From a virus (taxonomy: Duplodnaviria > Heunggongvirae > Uroviricota > Caudoviricetes): DNA of 64,000 nucleotides. The stretch lies in the IMG/VR virus record IMGVR_UViG_3300045988_145635. One strand, given 5' to 3'. Below the pieces are notes generated by a model. That model was not told where the DNA came from. It did not search any database and was given only the letters and a program-made list of their open reading frames with translations. Every line of letters begins with the position of its first letter. The first letter of the stretch is position 1. Below, piece by piece: positions 3,548-22,780 of the stretch. Both the position numbers and the translations under genes were made by a program.

Positions 3548-4117
3548 ATGAGTAAAAAAATCAGCGTAGTTGGTGTTGATCCCTCAATGAGCAACTTTGG
3601 GCTTGCTGTGGGCACTTTAGACCTTGAGACGGACGAACTTGAGATTCACGGCCTTACTCTTGTTGAGACTAAAGCGGGGAGTAACAAAAAGACCGTTCGT
3701 GTGAACAGTGACGATCTGCGCCGAGCCAGTGAAATATGGCGTGTTGCGAAGCCAATCATTGATAAGGCAAATATGGTTTTTTGTGAGCTACCGGTTGGGA
3801 GCCAAAACTCTCGTTCGCAGACGTCTTACGGTATTTGTATCGGTGTACTTGCGTGTGTGGATAAGCCATTGATCCAGGTTACTCCAAACGAAATCAAGCA
3901 TTTTGTCGGCAATAAACTTACTACATCGAAAGAAGAGATTATCCAGTGGGCTACGAAAAAACACCCTAAAGCACCGTGGCTGCGTCGTAAGCAATCTGGA
4001 CAGGATGTTCTCGTGAACAAAAACGAACATTTGGCTGATGCGGTGGCTGCCATCCATACCGGTATGCAAACAGATCAGTTCCGCCAGGTGCGCGATGTTC
4101 TTAAGTCTCTCATTTGA
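3548..4117 (+). CDS. putative RuvC-like Holliday junction resolvase
   Basis: N-terminal VVGVDPS motif and acidic residues spaced as in the RuvC/YqgF fold (CELP, ADAVAAIH); sits between SbcC and nrdA. Confidence 0.45.
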   Translation: MSKKISVVGVDPSMSNFGLAVGTLDLETDELEIHGLTLVETKAGSNKKTVRVNSDDLRRASEIWRVAKPIIDKANMVFCELPVGSQNSRSQTSYGICIGVLACVDKPLIQVTPNEIKHFVGNKLTTSKEEIIQWATKKHPKAPWLRRKQSGQDVLVNKNEHLADAVAAIHTGMQTDQFRQVRDVLKSLI

Positions 4118-4190
4118 TTTCATTGATAGGTAAGTGCTTATCTATTAACATGGGCCACTATATTTAGTGGCCCTCTTTATTTGGTGATAC

Positions 4191-6506
4191 ATGATAAGCA
4201 TCGTAAAACGTAACGGCCAAACAGAGCCGTTATCCGAAGAAAAATACAACCGCGTCGTAATGTATGGCGTAGAAGGCATTCGTGGTGTAAGCGCATCCGC
4301 TGTAGCAATGGGAGCTGCGGCCAGCATTTTTGATGGGATGACCACCAGCCAGTTGCATGAGGCTTTGGTTAAATCTGCCGCTGATTTGATCTCACCAGAA
4401 GCACCAAATTACTCACAGGTGGCTGCCCGCCTGAACATTTTTAAAATCCGCAAAGATGCCTTCGGTCGTTACGACTATCCGAACTTCTACCAACACATTG
4501 TCAAGAACGTTAACAAGGGCGTTTATGACAAGGATTTGCTGACACATTATTCGTTTGAAGAGATCGAAGAACTCGGCAATTACATTAAGCCGAAACGTGA
4601 CGATCTTTTTGGCTATGCAGCTACGGTGCAGTTGCAAAGCAAATACCTCGTTCAAAACCGTGTTACTGGTGAGATTCATGAGGGACCGCAACATATCTAT
4701 ATGCTGGTAGGCATGTGTCTGTTCCAGAATTGGGAAGACGACTGCGCTGGCAAAACACGTATGGAGATGGTCAAAGGTTTCTATGACGTTACAAGTACGT
4801 TCAAACTGTCTCTGCCCACACCAATCATGGCCGGCGTCCGTACTCCAACCCGTCAGTTCTCCAGTTGTGTGCTGATTGAGTCTGGCGATAGTCTGAAAGG
4901 GATTAGTGCAGCTTCAGCCGCAATTATCGACTACGTTTCACGTCGTGCTGGAATTGGTATTGGTTTTGGCCGTATCCGTGCGCTGGGCAGCGAGATCCGC
5001 AATGGTGAAGCCACCCATACTGGAGTTATTCCATTCCTGAAGCATTTCCAGACGGCTGTTAAATCTTGTTCGCAAGGTGGTGTTCGTGGTGGCGCAGCAA
5101 CAGCGTTTTACCCGATCTGGCATCTTGAAGTTGAAAGTCTGCTGGTGGTGAAAAATAACCGTGGTATTGATGAAAACCGCGTTCGCCATCTTGATTACGG
5201 CGTCATGAGTAACCGTCTAATGTACCGTCGACTCGTCAGAAGCGAGAACATCACTCTGTTCAGCCCGCATGATGTGCCTGATATGTACGAAGCCTTCTTC
5301 ACAGACCAGGAGCTGTTTGAAAAGCTGTACCATAAATACGAAGCCGATGATTCAATTCGCAAGAAGTCAGTACCTGCCATTGAGCTGTTCTCATCTCTGA
5401 TGCAGGAACGAGCGTCCACGGGCCGAATTTATATTGCGAACGTCGATCATATTAATGAGCATGGCGCTTTCATTCCTGCTCTTGCACCTGTTCGCCAGTC
5501 AAACCTGTGTATGGAGATCACCCTACCCACCCGTCCACTGGCATTTACCGACGACCCGAACGGTGAGATCGCGCTATGCACTTTATCCGCTTTTAACCTC
5601 GGAGCCATCCGTTCACTGGAGTCTCTTAAAGAGGTGGCGTTCTATGCCGTTGCTGCACTGGATTCGTTACTGGATTATCAAGACTATCCGATGGAGGCAG
5701 CCGAAGTGCCTGCCAAAGCTCGTCGTAGCTTGGGAATTGGTGTAACCAACTTTGCTTATTACCTGGCAAAGAATGGCGTTCGTTATTCTGATACCGCTGG
5801 CAATAAACTGGTGCATGAAACGTTCGAAGCTATCCAGTATTACCTTCTTGATGCCAGCTGCCGACTTGCTGAAGCAAAAGGTGAGTGTGACTGGTTTGAG
5901 CAGACCAAATACGCAATTGGTCAGTTGCCGATCGACCATTACCGTTCTTCATTAGACGAAAGTGGCGAAACCAACTTTGAGTTAAAGATGCCGTGGGAAG
6001 AACTGCGTGAACGTATTGCAAAATACGGCCTTCGCAACTCCACACTGACGGCACAAATGCCATGCGAGACTTCCAGCCAGATCACTAATTCCACCAACGG
6101 CATCGAACCGCCTCGTGGCCCGGTGTCAGTGAAATCTTCTAAGGACGGCATCGTCAAGATGGTCGTGCCTGAGTTTGAAAAACTGAAGGAACAGTATGAA
6201 TACCTGTGGGATATGCCGGACAACCGCGGCTATCTGACAAAGGTGGCGATCATCCAGAAGTTCTTTGACCAGGCTATTTCAGCCAATACCAACTATGACC
6301 CTTCTCGCTTTGAAGGCGATAAAGTCCCAATGATGACGCTACTGTCAGATTTGCTTCTCGCCTACAAGATGGGAGTTAAAACGCTTTACTACCACAACAC
6401 CAGAGATGGGGCAGGAAAGCGTGATGACGACGAACCGCAGAATCCACTGACGCAAGCTGTAGCCGTCGAGCCAGAAGATGAGTGCGACGGAGCCTGCAAA
6501 ATCTGA
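4191..6506 (+). CDS. nrdA: ribonucleoside-diphosphate reductase alpha subunit (class Ia)
   Basis: 771-aa protein collinear with recalled E. coli NrdA, including YLVQNRVTGEI, PTPIMAGVRTPTRQFSSCVLIE and VRQSNLCMEI blocks and the C-terminal CxxC tail. Confidence 0.95.
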   Translation: MISIVKRNGQTEPLSEEKYNRVVMYGVEGIRGVSASAVAMGAAASIFDGMTTSQLHEALVKSAADLISPEAPNYSQVAARLNIFKIRKDAFGRYDYPNFYQHIVKNVNKGVYDKDLLTHYSFEEIEELGNYIKPKRDDLFGYAATVQLQSKYLVQNRVTGEIHEGPQHIYMLVGMCLFQNWEDDCAGKTRMEMVKGFYDVTSTFKLSLPTPIMAGVRTPTRQFSSCVLIESGDSLKGISAASAAIIDYVSRRAGIGIGFGRIRALGSEIRNGEATHTGVIPFLKHFQTAVKSCSQGGVRGGAATAFYPIWHLEVESLLVVKNNRGIDENRVRHLDYGVMSNRLMYRRLVRSENITLFSPHDVPDMYEAFFTDQELFEKLYHKYEADDSIRKKSVPAIELFSSLMQERASTGRIYIANVDHINEHGAFIPALAPVRQSNLCMEITLPTRPLAFTDDPNGEIALCTLSAFNLGAIRSLESLKEVAFYAVAALDSLLDYQDYPMEAAEVPAKARRSLGIGVTNFAYYLAKNGVRYSDTAGNKLVHETFEAIQYYLLDASCRLAEAKGECDWFEQTKYAIGQLPIDHYRSSLDESGETNFELKMPWEELRERIAKYGLRNSTLTAQMPCETSSQITNSTNGIEPPRGPVSVKSSKDGIVKMVVPEFEKLKEQYEYLWDMPDNRGYLTKVAIIQKFFDQAISANTNYDPSRFEGDKVPMMTLLSDLLLAYKMGVKTLYYHNTRDGAGKRDDDEPQNPLTQAVAVEPEDECDGACKI

Positions 6507-13708: not shown

Positions 13709-14302
13709 ATGATTGCAGCCGAAAAAATCAAACAGCGAAAGCGCGACAACTCTCTTCGTGACCTCTGGAGAACACCTGACTGGCTGTTTTCTGCCATTCA
13801 ACGTTATCTTGGAGTGACATTTGATGTTGACGTTGCCTGCAACAAGGACAATGCAAAGCTGCCTAATTTCATAGGCGTTGAGCGTGATGCTTTGAAATCT
13901 GAATGGGGACAGCCAGGTACAATTGCCTTCCTCAATCCACCCTACTCCAAAATCTCCCCCTGGATTGATGCGGCTATACGTGAGCAGGCTCGCGGAGTTA
14001 CAACAGTGATGCTAATTCCTCAATCCCTAGATACAAAGTGGTATGAGCGTGCAACAGAGTGTGCGAATGAGACGATTATTCTGTCTGGTGGCCGCGTAGC
14101 GTTTGTCGAGCCTGACGTCAATCTGGGTCAGGTAGAAGTAAACATCAACCCAGGTGGCAGTATGCTCGTTGTTTTTCGAGGATTCTGTCAGGACGCTGGG
14201 CACTCTATAAGCAAGATCCCTTTGGACGTCATGAAAAGTCTGGGAGGGTATGATCCTGCGAATGTGATCAGGAAAAAAAGACCATCAAAGAAGGCTGCTT
14301 AG
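13709..14302 (+). CDS. DNA N6-adenine methyltransferase (phage Dam-like)
   Basis: FLNPPYS catalytic motif in a ~190-aa protein typical of small phage adenine methyltransferases. Confidence 0.75.
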   Translation: MIAAEKIKQRKRDNSLRDLWRTPDWLFSAIQRYLGVTFDVDVACNKDNAKLPNFIGVERDALKSEWGQPGTIAFLNPPYSKISPWIDAAIREQARGVTTVMLIPQSLDTKWYERATECANETIILSGGRVAFVEPDVNLGQVEVNINPGGSMLVVFRGFCQDAGHSISKIPLDVMKSLGGYDPANVIRKKRPSKKAA

Positions 14303-19084: not shown

Positions 19085-19187
19085 CAAATACCTTTATTTA
19101 AAGGATTGCCTGTTAATTTCTATTTAGCACCTTTTCATTTTTGAAATAATTGCACCATTAAACAAATCTTTTCTTAATGGTGCAATT

Positions 19188-20873
19188 ATGAATACAGCTC
19201 TTTCCATCATCGACGATGCCAACTCAAACACTGCTATCGATTATCGTCAGGAAATGAACGTCATCCACGAAATTGTGGCCGAGTGCGAGAAGGAGATCGC
19301 CTTCATGTATCAGGTTCACGACTTCGTTTATGGAGACGAACGCCACAACATGATTAATCGCCTGCTGCAACTGAACCACCGACCAGATGAAGAACGCTCA
19401 CGTTTGAATCGAGCTTGGCTGGATAAAGTCGATCTGGAATGGGTGAAACAGAATATTTGGGCCGAGTACTGGAGGAAGGTCACGGATATGACTAACGTTC
19501 TGCTGATCATGCCAGCTTCCCGTCGCGACGAGTGGCGTGAGCAGTTTATCGAGGGTAAGCAGGAAGTCATCAAAACTGACAGAACCGGCTATCAGATGAA
19601 GGTAAAAGAGTTCGTTGGTGTACCGGAGTTCAAAGCAGAAACGGTCATACCCACGATGCTTAATTTGCTGAATGACAGGCACAAATATCTCTCTGAGCGC
19701 GTGTATGGCTTGTTTAAGGCGCTGAGTCCTGCGCACAAGACAAATAAGACAAACGGTTTCAGCGAACGTCTGATAATCGCTGACTGCATTTCTGATTTCT
19801 GGCGGGACAGCGTTAGTGTGAACTATCGCAAAGAGGACTATATCGACGATCTGCGTGTCTTGCTTCATTTCTTCGCGCACAAAGAATTTATTACCATCAA
19901 CCGCACTGCTGAGGTGCTATCAGCTGCGTATCGGGCAAACGACTGCCAGACCGGTGACTGGATGAACGTCGATGGAAATCTGATGCGCGTGAAGATGTTC
20001 AAGAACGGCAACGTTCACTTTGAAATACATCCTGACGTGGCCTGGAAGTTGAATGAGGTGCTGGCTTACAGTATGCCTGCTGCAATCCCCGCGCCATGTC
20101 GCACCGCGCCAAAAACACGGGCACCAAAGCAGTTCGGGTTAATCCAGAAGACGATCTCCGTGCCGGTTCGCACTGCGCTTCGTGACGGGCGATTGAGCAA
20201 AGACAAAGGCGTATGGTACTTCTCTGATTCAGCTCTCCAGAAGTCGCAGGTGGAAGAGCTTGAGCGCACACTGAGCTTCATTGGCGGCGTGCAGGAGAAA
20301 AAGCACTGGCAGTTCCCGTATGACATCGTCCATACGCTAAATACGATTGTGGCTACCGGTTTAATACCGGATACAAAATCACACCAGTTCTACCCTACCC
20401 CACGCTTGATTGCTGAGTACGTTGCCAGAGCCACTGAATTGAAGCCTGGTGAGAAGCTGCTGGAGCCTCAAGCCGGACGTGGGGATCTTCTGGCCTATAT
20501 TAACGCCGATCTGGAAGATGTTACCTGCATAGAAATCGCACCTCTCTTCGCTGATATCCTGCGTGGAAAAGGGTATACGAACACGATTTGCTGCGACTTC
20601 ATAAAGTGGTCTGAGGACAACGTAGGTTATCAGTTCGACAAAATCGTTATGAACCCGCCGTATTCGCTTGGTCGTCATAGAGAGCACACGCTGGCTGCGC
20701 TGGGGCATCTGAAAGTCGGCGGGCGTCTTGTAGCAGTATTGCCGGGCACTGCGCCAATACTGGACTGGATGACGATGGATAATTACGTTTATGCCAGAGG
20801 GAAGTCGTTTACCAACGAGTTTGAAGACACAGGGATCACAGTCAGCGTATACGTTTTCAAACGCGTTAAATGA
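19188..20873 (+). CDS. DNA N6-adenine methyltransferase with large N-terminal domain of unknown function
   Basis: C-terminal region has motif I LLEPQAGRGDL and motif IV VMNPPYS (gamma-type order); N-terminal ~400 aa unassigned. Confidence 0.65.
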   Translation: MNTALSIIDDANSNTAIDYRQEMNVIHEIVAECEKEIAFMYQVHDFVYGDERHNMINRLLQLNHRPDEERSRLNRAWLDKVDLEWVKQNIWAEYWRKVTDMTNVLLIMPASRRDEWREQFIEGKQEVIKTDRTGYQMKVKEFVGVPEFKAETVIPTMLNLLNDRHKYLSERVYGLFKALSPAHKTNKTNGFSERLIIADCISDFWRDSVSVNYRKEDYIDDLRVLLHFFAHKEFITINRTAEVLSAAYRANDCQTGDWMNVDGNLMRVKMFKNGNVHFEIHPDVAWKLNEVLAYSMPAAIPAPCRTAPKTRAPKQFGLIQKTISVPVRTALRDGRLSKDKGVWYFSDSALQKSQVEELERTLSFIGGVQEKKHWQFPYDIVHTLNTIVATGLIPDTKSHQFYPTPRLIAEYVARATELKPGEKLLEPQAGRGDLLAYINADLEDVTCIEIAPLFADILRGKGYTNTICCDFIKWSEDNVGYQFDKIVMNPPYSLGRHREHTLAALGHLKVGGRLVAVLPGTAPILDWMTMDNYVYARGKSFTNEFEDTGITVSVYVFKRVK

Positions 20874-22138: not shown

Positions 22139-22780
22139 ATGTCTAGTATTTCCGAAGCACATATGTTCGCCGCTGGCGCTCATGGTGGCGTTGGTCAGAA
22201 AAGAAAATATACCGGCGAAAACTACATCAACCACCCGGTTGCTGTCCGAGAGATTGTTGCATTGCATGACGGAACCGTGGAGATGCAAATCGCGGCGCTT
22301 CTGCATGATGTGGTCGAAGACACCCATGTAACCATAGAGATGGTTCGTGATCACTTCGGTGAGCGCGTAGCTGAAATGGTTCAGGCTCTGACCAACATTG
22401 CAAGGCCAGAAGACGGCAATCGAATACAGCGTTTCATCATCAATGTCCGGGAGCTGGAGCAAAATCTCGACATGCAGACGCGCATGATCAAGCTGGCTGA
22501 CCTGCTCGACAATACCTCTTCTATCGTGAGTCGCGATCCTGAGTTTTCAGCTATCTACCTTGCAGAGAAAGAGCTGATGCTGGACGTACTTTTTAACGGG
22601 AAGGAGATTGGTGCCAACGCTGATGTTGTCGAGTACATGGAGAGGATAGGTATAGAACACCCGTTGTTATTAAGCGCAAAGGCGAAAGTCACTGAAGGTA
22701 TTGCGCTTCTGAAACCGGTACACATCAAACGTTATGAAAAACACAAATCGCTGATCTGGAGCGCGTGGGAGGCTGCATGA
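22139..22780 (+). CDS. HD-domain (p)ppGpp hydrolase-like protein (RelA/SpoT hydrolase domain only)
   Basis: HPVAVREIV ... AALLHDVVEDT block matching the SpoT/RelA HD hydrolase signature; 213 aa, no synthetase domain. Confidence 0.7.
   Translation: MSSISEAHMFAAGAHGGVGQKRKYTGENYINHPVAVREIVALHDGTVEMQIAALLHDVVEDTHVTIEMVRDHFGERVAEMVQALTNIARPEDGNRIQRFIINVRELEQNLDMQTRMIKLADLLDNTSSIVSRDPEFSAIYLAEKELMLDVLFNGKEIGANADVVEYMERIGIEHPLLLSAKAKVTEGIALLKPVHIKRYEKHKSLIWSAWEAA

Follow-up and report, generated by a model that had tools for sequence, protein, structure and literature searches.

A DUF4942-methyltransferase fusion protein in an SSU5-like phage-plasmid: a candidate orphan DNA adenine methyltransferase with a minimal catalytic domain

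The gene at positions 19188-20873 of IMG/VR virus record IMGVR_UViG_3300045988_145635, a 64,000-nucleotide stretch of Caudoviricetes DNA (the window hereafter) that is an SSU5-like phage-plasmid, encodes a protein of 561 amino acids (aa) in which a minimal methyltransferase (MTase) domain follows an N-terminal part of 395 aa. With a probability of about one half, this protein is read here as an orphan gamma-type DNA N6-methyladenine (m6A) MTase that would serve as anti-restriction or self-marking cargo and whose N-terminal module would engage DNA. The joining of the N-terminal 395 aa to the catalytic module is a fixed arrangement and no isolated case; when 1.84 billion representatives were searched by phmmer with aa 1-395, 614 clusters were returned, and nearly all of the best 150 of these were proteins of 510-580 aa that matched at their N-terminus and carried the MTase alongside. 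The catalytic domain has no target recognition domain (TRD) of its own, and its dependence on the N-terminal module for engaging DNA is the best-supported view of this arrangement. The gene and its parts, in window coordinates, are as follows:

19188..20873, + strand: complete open reading frame (ORF) of the DUF4942-MTase protein, 561 aa, uninterrupted from the ATG at 19188 to the stop codon at 20871-20873
19188..19433, + strand: variable acidic helical segment, aa 1-82, from the AlphaFold2 (AF2) model; aa 1-16 disordered, helices at 20-48 and 52-62
19434..20117, + strand: DUF4942 core, aa 83-310, conserved and basic, from Pfam PF13708, conservation and the AF2 model
20118..20372, + strand: variable alpha/beta "bridge", aa 311-395, a candidate specificity element; predicted local distance difference test (pLDDT) score 76-91
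20373..20870, + strand: minimal gamma-class (TaqI/EcoKI-like) N6-adenine MTase Rossmann domain, aa 396-561, from Foldseek, profiles, PADLOC and hhalign
20385..20402, + strand: motif X region QFYPTP, aa 400-405, with the "TP" cap; Q400, Y402, P403 and T404 at least 91% conserved
20463..20489, + strand: motif I EPQAGRGDL, aa 426-434, the S-adenosylmethionine (SAM)-binding loop; E426 and G430 100% conserved, P427, A429 and G432 at least 96%
20652..20663, + strand: motif IV NPPY, aa 489-492, the catalytic loop, aligned to the NPPY of M.TaqI; N489 and P491 100% conserved, P490 98%

The ORF is a real gene, as its hundreds of full-length homologs demonstrate. A protein encoded by the E. coli plasmid CP057798 is 100% identical to the 561-aa product, and at the nucleotide level the gene is 97.9% identical to CYRAN_90 of Escherichia phage Cyrano (labeled "DUF4942 domain-containing protein") and 89.7% identical to SSU5_095 of Salmonella phage SSU5 (labeled "DNA methyltransferase"); the PHROG 6263 profile ("DNA methyltransferase") is matched end to end, with aa 1-561 aligned to profile positions 1-548 of 548 (E 3.9e-299). 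The first-pass annotation of the window had described an MTase fused to an N-terminal domain of about 400 residues and of unknown function. The fusion is real but not novel, since this architecture is constant, occurs widely and has been catalogued before (Pfam DUF4942, PHROG 6263, SSU5_095). Some 395 N-terminal residues do lack MTase similarity, but they are covered by the Pfam DUF4942 and PHROG 6263 matches; they are also distinct from the MTase in predicted domain structure, but as a composite of three sub-modules (helices, core and bridge) instead of one large domain. Target recognition or a second activity had been suggested for the N-terminal domain in that annotation, and either may apply. 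Because the family is both catalogued and abundant, the gene itself is no discovery; its architecture is uncharacterized.

The same annotation had recognized the motifs EPQAGRGDL and NPPY and had placed recognizable MTase motifs in the C-terminal third only, which agrees with the present analysis, where MTase similarity is confined to approximately aa 396-561. Among 136 representatives with at most 50% mutual identity, on which the conservation estimates are based, the X/I/II/III/IV motif set is invariant (E426, G430, E449, D470, N489, P491), E449, D470 and F471 are at least 96% conserved, and a strict regular expression for the gamma motif order X-I-IV is satisfied by 122 of 135 representatives, the others having variants. 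With its catalytic and SAM-binding residues conserved, the domain looks active and not degenerate. Within the MTase region, PADLOC returned its Type II MTase model (E 4e-10) and mad2 (E 1e-15), and aa 396-522 were matched by PHROG families that comprise giant phage proteins and carry the annotation DNA methyltransferase. A profile of 26 homologs searched against PDB sequences found M.TaqI (8e-4), the adenine MTase 7vru (1.7e-3) and the EcoR124II HsdM (7.6e-3) as its best matches, with DNA adenine MTases outranking RNA MTases. The AF2 model of the full protein (pLDDT 81.7; predicted template modeling score 0.68) has a Rossmann fold at the C-terminus, with pLDDT of approximately 87-94 across most of aa 400-520, and its Foldseek matches in the PDB include TrmN, HsdM of StySJI and TaqI at E 1e-7 to 1e-6. 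The EcoKI/TaqI-like clade of gamma MTases has a TP-capped helix together with NPP(Y/F) (Iyer et al., 2017, PMC5512222), and both features are seen in the window protein. Homology to DNA m6A MTases points to DNA as the probable substrate, and to the N6 position of adenine in DNA as the probable site of methyl transfer.

The chain ends 69 aa past NPPY, and the distance from motif IV to the C-terminus is 63-88 aa in all representatives; recognition can therefore not be C-terminal, and a C-terminal recognition domain as in M.TaqI is absent from the window protein and from all representatives. The genomic surroundings do not supply a substitute, since no conserved neighboring gene resembling an S subunit was found among 67 loci.

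The N-terminal part of the protein begins with a divergent, acidic segment (aa 1-82; mean pairwise identity 19%, isoelectric point 4.9, net charge -7), which is followed by the DUF4942 core. Pfam PF13708 (DUF4942) matched aa 140-295 of the window protein (E 1.2e-20, 74.5 bits against a gathering cut-off of 25) and was matched by all 26 aligned homologs. The core is the sole basic domain of the protein, with a family median isoelectric point of 9.1 and 10 conserved lysine or arginine positions; the residues W95, L179, S180, H183, T185, N186, W258, H277, N289 and L292 are invariant, and aa 123-145 form a clade-specific beta-hairpin insert. Mean pairwise identity is 45% in the core versus 42% in the MTase domain and 26% in the bridge, and in a set of 60 unique IMG/VR sequences the core still stands at 96% where the MTase domain has fallen to 78% and the bridge to 86-88%. 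To judge from this conservation, the DUF4942 core appears unlike a classical, fast-evolving TRD and does not seem to behave as a diversifying recognition domain. Among the structured segments, the bridge varies most, and in 125 of 153 close pairs it is less conserved than both the core and the MTase domain; it therefore appears to be a better candidate for a specificity element than the core.

Naturally occurring chimeras indicate where the protein divides. Over aa 83-310, the homolog P0044 shares 94-96% identity with the window protein, but over aa 311-561 only about 50%; in this second stretch P0044 matches the Klebsiella-clade allele P0079 at 99-100% identity. Comparison of P0044 and P0045 with P0079 places the breakpoint at approximately aa 300-312, joining an E. 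coli-type N-terminal half to a Klebsiella-type bridge and MTase domain. P0047 carries a third bridge allele. PHROG 9133 matches aa 328-560, that is, bridge and MTase as one unit. Together, the chimera breakpoint and the PHROG 9133 match suggest that the true modules of the protein are the helices with the DUF4942 core on one side, and the bridge with the MTase domain on the other.

DUF4942 is also found alone. Pseudoalteromonas phage PS_L5 encodes a stand-alone DUF4942 protein of 251 aa (locus L087, 2698-3453; Pfam E 2e-46) that aligns to aa 83-295 of the window protein (hhalign 98.4%) and has no MTase nearby; its gene and an ssb/recombination block are transcribed divergently, and a gene for a DUF6291 protein comes next. 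In Salmonella Infantis, a DUF4942 gene on SPI-3 (locus L090, 5707-6591) adjoins rhuM, again without a nearby MTase; this gene appears split into two ORFs and is a possible pseudogene. In CP4-like islands, the stand-alone DUF4942 gene L0010 lies near genes for KlcA-type antirestriction, RadC and CbtA/CbeA (PMC6980539). Fused and stand-alone forms have W95, P146, F176, N186, D221, L222, G274, H277, N289 and A293 in common; the stand-alone forms lack the bridge and the MTase domain, and have tyrosine in place of H183 and aspartate in place of R223. The sources that were looked up gave no functional name for stand-alone DUF4942 proteins. The DUF4942 core thus looks like a module that can stand by itself, evolves under strong constraint and has kept a polar site.

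Searches for relatives of the N-terminal module returned little beyond DUF4942 itself. In BFVD, its only fold relatives are two uncharacterized phage proteins of about 250-270 aa; in the PDB, the DUF4942 core had no fold relative, and Foldseek with the full model gave MTase matches only. For aa 1-395, a profile search of PDB sequences and separate Pfam scans of the 26 members found nothing but DUF4942. Neither conservation nor the comparison of fused and stand-alone forms revealed a PD-(D/E)xK or HNH pattern in the N-terminal module. A zincin was considered, since H277-x3-H281 recalls HExxH, and was rejected: H277 lies on a strand, E279 is misplaced, and H281 is lost in the stand-alone forms.

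The gene is widely distributed among mobile elements. Homologs were found in 41 phage records and 306 IMG/VR contigs, full-length homologs of about 30% identity reside on IncHI2 conjugative plasmids, and Alpha-, Beta- and Gammaproteobacteria have others in their chromosomes and prophages. A search of plasmid proteins matched at least 5000 records; in about 2100 of those listed the match extends over 80% or more of the protein, and the majority of the other listed records match only the MTase domain of small leading-region enzymes. Representatives that consist of the N-terminal module only (350-400 aa) were considered as split genes; the two examined end 30-70 bp from a contig end and are therefore probably truncated.

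When the ORFs of the 67 loci were clustered, no conserved partner (restriction endonuclease, S subunit or helicase) emerged; the largest neighbor cluster comprised 10 of the 67 loci, all of one plasmid lineage. Without a conserved neighbor in these loci, the gene looks like an orphan MTase in its behavior. In Aeromonas phage vB_AsaM-56 the homolog is part of the nin region, where ant and ninG flank it. On the IncHI2 plasmid pS15 it lies directly downstream of a gene for a 387-aa protein with a ParB-type helix-turn-helix (locus L003, 4742-5905), and a Dam-family MTase (3560-4333 of the same locus) is encoded near the homolog, a few kb from repHI2. Among 76 viral-contig copies in IMG/VR (loci L093-L170), three have premature stops (52, 332 and 341 aa); these truncated copies indicate occasional gene loss in otherwise intact SSU5-like elements.

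The favored reading can be cast as a sequence of steps. The basic DUF4942 core (aa 83-310) would dock the enzyme on nucleic acid, by generic or structure-specific DNA binding; the bridge (aa 311-395), exchanged together with the MTase between alleles, would position the DNA and may set the sequence preference; and the NPPY loop would methylate a flipped adenine. The DNA of the element itself would in this manner be methylated in the plasmid state and in virions, and would arrive pre-protected against the restriction systems of new hosts. Pre-protection against restriction is the classic role of orphan methylases of phages and plasmids. Orphan MTases are established as anti-restriction cargo of such elements (PMC11541004, PMC7736820), and the accessory and nin-region positions of the gene, its portability, and the exchange of allelic cassettes fit a presumptive anti-restriction role.

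Several considerations weigh against this interpretation. An MTase that is synthesized only after entry comes too late to protect the genome that has just entered. A classical specificity domain would be less conserved than the DUF4942 core, the basic charge of the core is weak evidence of DNA binding, and the variability of the bridge may merely reflect low constraint. Stand-alone copies of the core are found where no MTase gene adjoins, so that the core must serve some purpose by itself; publications refer to DUF4942 only incidentally, and neither DUF4942 nor this MTase is characterized in them. The choice of DNA as substrate can be questioned as well, since the top Foldseek matches include TrmN and PmtA, and also the RNA MTase PH1948 and DIMT1, and since Pfam MTS and RrnaAD score about as well as N6_Mtase, all of them weakly. 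The NPPY motif and the Rossmann fold are known in RNA and protein MTases too.

The stand-alone forms lend themselves to a different explanation, in which the protein is a miniature polyvalent anti-defense factor and DUF4942 an effector in its own right (an enzyme, or else an inhibitor of a host defense or repair factor) that acts independently of methylation and is merely linked to an orphan MTase. We regard this as a tentative alternative and on the whole an unlikely one. It would account for DUF4942 proteins of about 250-290 aa that phages and genomic islands encode with no MTase next to them, for the company that they keep in the CP4-like islands, for a polar constellation (N186, D221, H277, N289 and an acidic residue at 262) that is kept in fused and stand-alone forms, and for the slower evolution of the core compared to the catalytic domain; MTase modules are moreover frequent building blocks of polyvalent proteins (PMC5512222). 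Yet fold and profile searches found no similarity to catalytic or inhibitor folds, no metal or nucleotide motif is recognizable, and the order and length of the fusion are fixed over hundreds of clusters, which suggests cooperation; an MTase that lacks a TRD needs some substrate-binding partner in any case. A different purpose for the same DNA m6A enzyme, namely epigenetic self-regulation of the phage-plasmid (its replication, packaging, or lysis-lysogeny decision) instead of restriction evasion, appears somewhat less probable still. A second, unrelated DNA MTase at 13709-14302 opens the possibility that roles are divided; the phage-plasmid P1 uses adenine methylation sites in its regulatory regions, as seen in its annotations; and hundreds of SSU5-like elements have kept the gene. 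However, its spread over unrelated phages, IncHI2 plasmids and chromosomal islands without conserved neighbors is a better fit for portable cargo, the exchange of allelic cassettes fits an arms race, and the occasional truncated alleles suggest that the gene is dispensable.

The matches to RNA MTases raise the question of whether the methylation substrate might instead be a conserved RNA or protein of the host (rRNA, tRNA or a translation factor, for instance) that the DUF4942 module recognizes. The weak Pfam and NCBIfam matches to RrnaAD/KsgA/Erm and MTS and the TrmN, PH1948 and DIMT1 folds are compatible with such a substrate, and the extreme conservation of the N-terminal module would suit an invariant target; this option is nevertheless improbable, as profile searches place the DNA MTases TaqI, 7vru and HsdM first, hidden Markov models of Type II DNA MTases match at 4e-10, the domain is homologous to the MTase of DarB, the TP-helix and NPPY signature is that of the EcoKI/TaqI DNA clade, and the gene is located where phage DNA methylases are typically encoded, as in the nin region beside NinG. 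Least probable is a single-chain restriction-modification enzyme similar to Type IIG/IIL, its nuclease residing in the N-terminal part. In a few phage records homologs bear the label "RE endonuclease" or "DNA restriction methylase," the order of N-terminal domain, connector and gamma MTase superficially resembles Type IIG, and 1 of 26 members gave a weak match to Pfam Eco57I. Against this assignment, the protein has neither an N-terminal nuclease signature (no PD-(D/E)xK, HNH, PLD or GIY-YIG, and no lysine of the N-terminal module conserved at 90% or more) nor the C-terminal TRD that is present in Type IIG enzymes; the PADLOC match to REase_MTase_IIG is marginal and limited to the MTase region, and the gene is carried by phages and plasmids as an orphan.

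If the protein is an orphan DNA MTase as favored here, its relevance follows from its carriers. Orphan methylases help phages and plasmids to cross restriction barriers, and the carriers in this case are SSU5-like phage-plasmids, which are vehicles of resistance genes in Enterobacteriaceae, and IncHI2 resistance plasmids; the target motif would help to explain the host range of such elements, and would aid in engineering and transforming them. What is unusual is the combination of a minimal catalytic domain without a TRD and an N-terminal module that is more conserved than this domain, exists on its own as well, and is without a structural relative. Characterizing this module would provide a function for DUF4942, and might show that DNA can be presented to a methyltransferase in a manner not seen before. 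It is conceivable, if doubtful, that DUF4942 is an unrecognized mobile-element module with a new fold, either a domain that replaces the TRD in engaging DNA and presenting the base, or an independent anti-defense or enzymatic effector built around the N186/D221/H277/N289 site. Should the effector version hold, a two-activity anti-defense factor would be present on thousands of clinical plasmids and phage-plasmids; should DUF4942 be a mere DNA clamp, the finding would be routine.

In the window, the neighbors of the MTase gene are unrelated accessory genes; a PHROG scan of the 10 flanking ORFs matched only accessory families (the second MTase, RNase H, a TciA-like protein, a membrane protein, an HD hydrolase, and unknowns). 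The upstream side includes a pair of genes similar to TciA/TciB of P1 (16838-17421; 141 aa and 52 aa; phrog_632, "tellurite resistance"), and the downstream side a 213-aa HD-domain metal-dependent phosphohydrolase (22139-22780; phrog_990), typical moron or accessory cargo on either flank of the MTase. The second DNA methyltransferase (13709-14302, + strand; 197 aa; phrog_111, E 1.6e-65) lies about 5 kb upstream, is unrelated to the product of 19188-20873, and has a counterpart in Cyrano that is labeled "Adenine methyltransferase"; one accessory block of the phage-plasmid thus contains two orphan MTases.

Immediately upstream of the gene, one further feature overlaps its start:

19146..19189, + strand: perfect 16-bp inverted repeat with a 12-nt loop, the 3' arm of which takes in GGTG, the likely Shine-Dalgarno sequence, and the first two letters of the start codon

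Folded as RNA, this segment reaches -20.6 kcal/mol (z -5.7), and none of 200 shuffled sequences was as stable. The hairpin, conserved within the E. coli clade only, is kept in Cyrano and degraded in the SSU5, Kluyvera, Klebsiella and Morganella relatives, and may represent a lineage-specific translational or operator control; a conserved riboregulator was rejected, since the hairpin is not kept in the SSU5, Klebsiella and Morganella relatives and no consensus structure exists. Its sequence does not recur elsewhere in the window beyond chance. In SSU5 (locus L002, approximately 5880-5900) and Kluyvera (locus L005), a GC-rich, terminator-like hairpin, GGGGGCGAAAGCCCCC, followed by a T-run, lies upstream of the homolog; it is absent upstream of the window copy, where the preceding gene differs. 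This difference suggests that the MTase gene begins a transcription unit of its own, and that the upstream junction is a point of recombination.

Among characterized enzymes, M.TaqI and the HsdM subunits of EcoKI and EcoR124II share with the window protein the motif order (TP-capped helix, EPxxGxG, NPPY) and the Rossmann fold. In contrast to the window protein, M.TaqI has its own C-terminal recognition domain of about 180 aa, whereas the type I HsdM relies on a separate HsdS subunit and has an N-terminal helical domain; the DUF4942 core and the bridge resemble no part of M.TaqI or HsdM. Mad2 of the MADS system was considered and set aside, as the PADLOC match extends only over aa 394-523, aligned to profile positions 265-401 of 492; the 10 flanking ORFs, which were scanned with PHROG and not with PADLOC, match only accessory families.

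The MTase domain of the P1 protein DarB is homologous to that of the window protein (window aa 389-520 aligned to DarB aa 80-228; hhalign 94.8%, E 5.5e-8), and both proteins occur in mobile-element, anti-restriction settings. DarB differs in its size (2255 aa), its fusion to a superfamily 2 (SF2) helicase, and its packaging in the virion; the window protein has no helicase domain, is encoded within an accessory block rather than with the structural genes, and has an N-terminal module that is without a counterpart anywhere in DarB. The protein therefore falls outside the DarB-like dyad, in which the MTase is fused C-terminally to an SF2/SNF2 helicase and N-terminally to LPD36. Another match for the catalytic domain is the 187-aa "class I SAM-dependent methyltransferase" of IncF/IncI leading regions, which matches aa 398-553 (hhalign 99.6%), shares the NPP(F/Y)SxG...H signature, and sits among ssb, psiB and antirestriction genes; it differs in having no N-terminal module and in directly following a DUF3560 gene, and is itself uncharacterized. 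In the leading region of the IncF plasmid pT257A (locus L004, 5506-7477), for example, a gene for a 453-aa DUF3560 protein is followed after 46 bp by this minimal MTase. DUF3560 was rejected as a split equivalent of the N-terminal module, with an hhalign probability of only 0.3%; the pair of DUF3560 and 187-aa MTase could still be a two-gene counterpart of a TRD-less MTase with its partner.

Two further comparisons are analogies. The MTase in ParB-like fusions probably belongs to the beta class. These fusions of a ParB-like domain and an MTase (PMC5512222) likewise combine an N-terminal, DNA-engaging domain that is not a TRD with an orphan adenine MTase, but their N-terminal domain is ParB/Srx-like with nicking or NTPase activity, and Pfam scans and the fold search found no ParB similarity in the window protein. 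The plasmid enzymes M.EcoGIX and M.BceJIII are single-strand-specific, of beta class with motif IV DPPY, and about 27 kDa in size (PMC7736820); they were rejected as the family of the window protein, which has gamma motif order, NPPY, 561 aa and DUF4942. As orphan m6A MTases of mobile elements that evade restriction at entry (PMC7736820), M.EcoGIX and M.BceJIII provide the functional analogy for the role proposed here.

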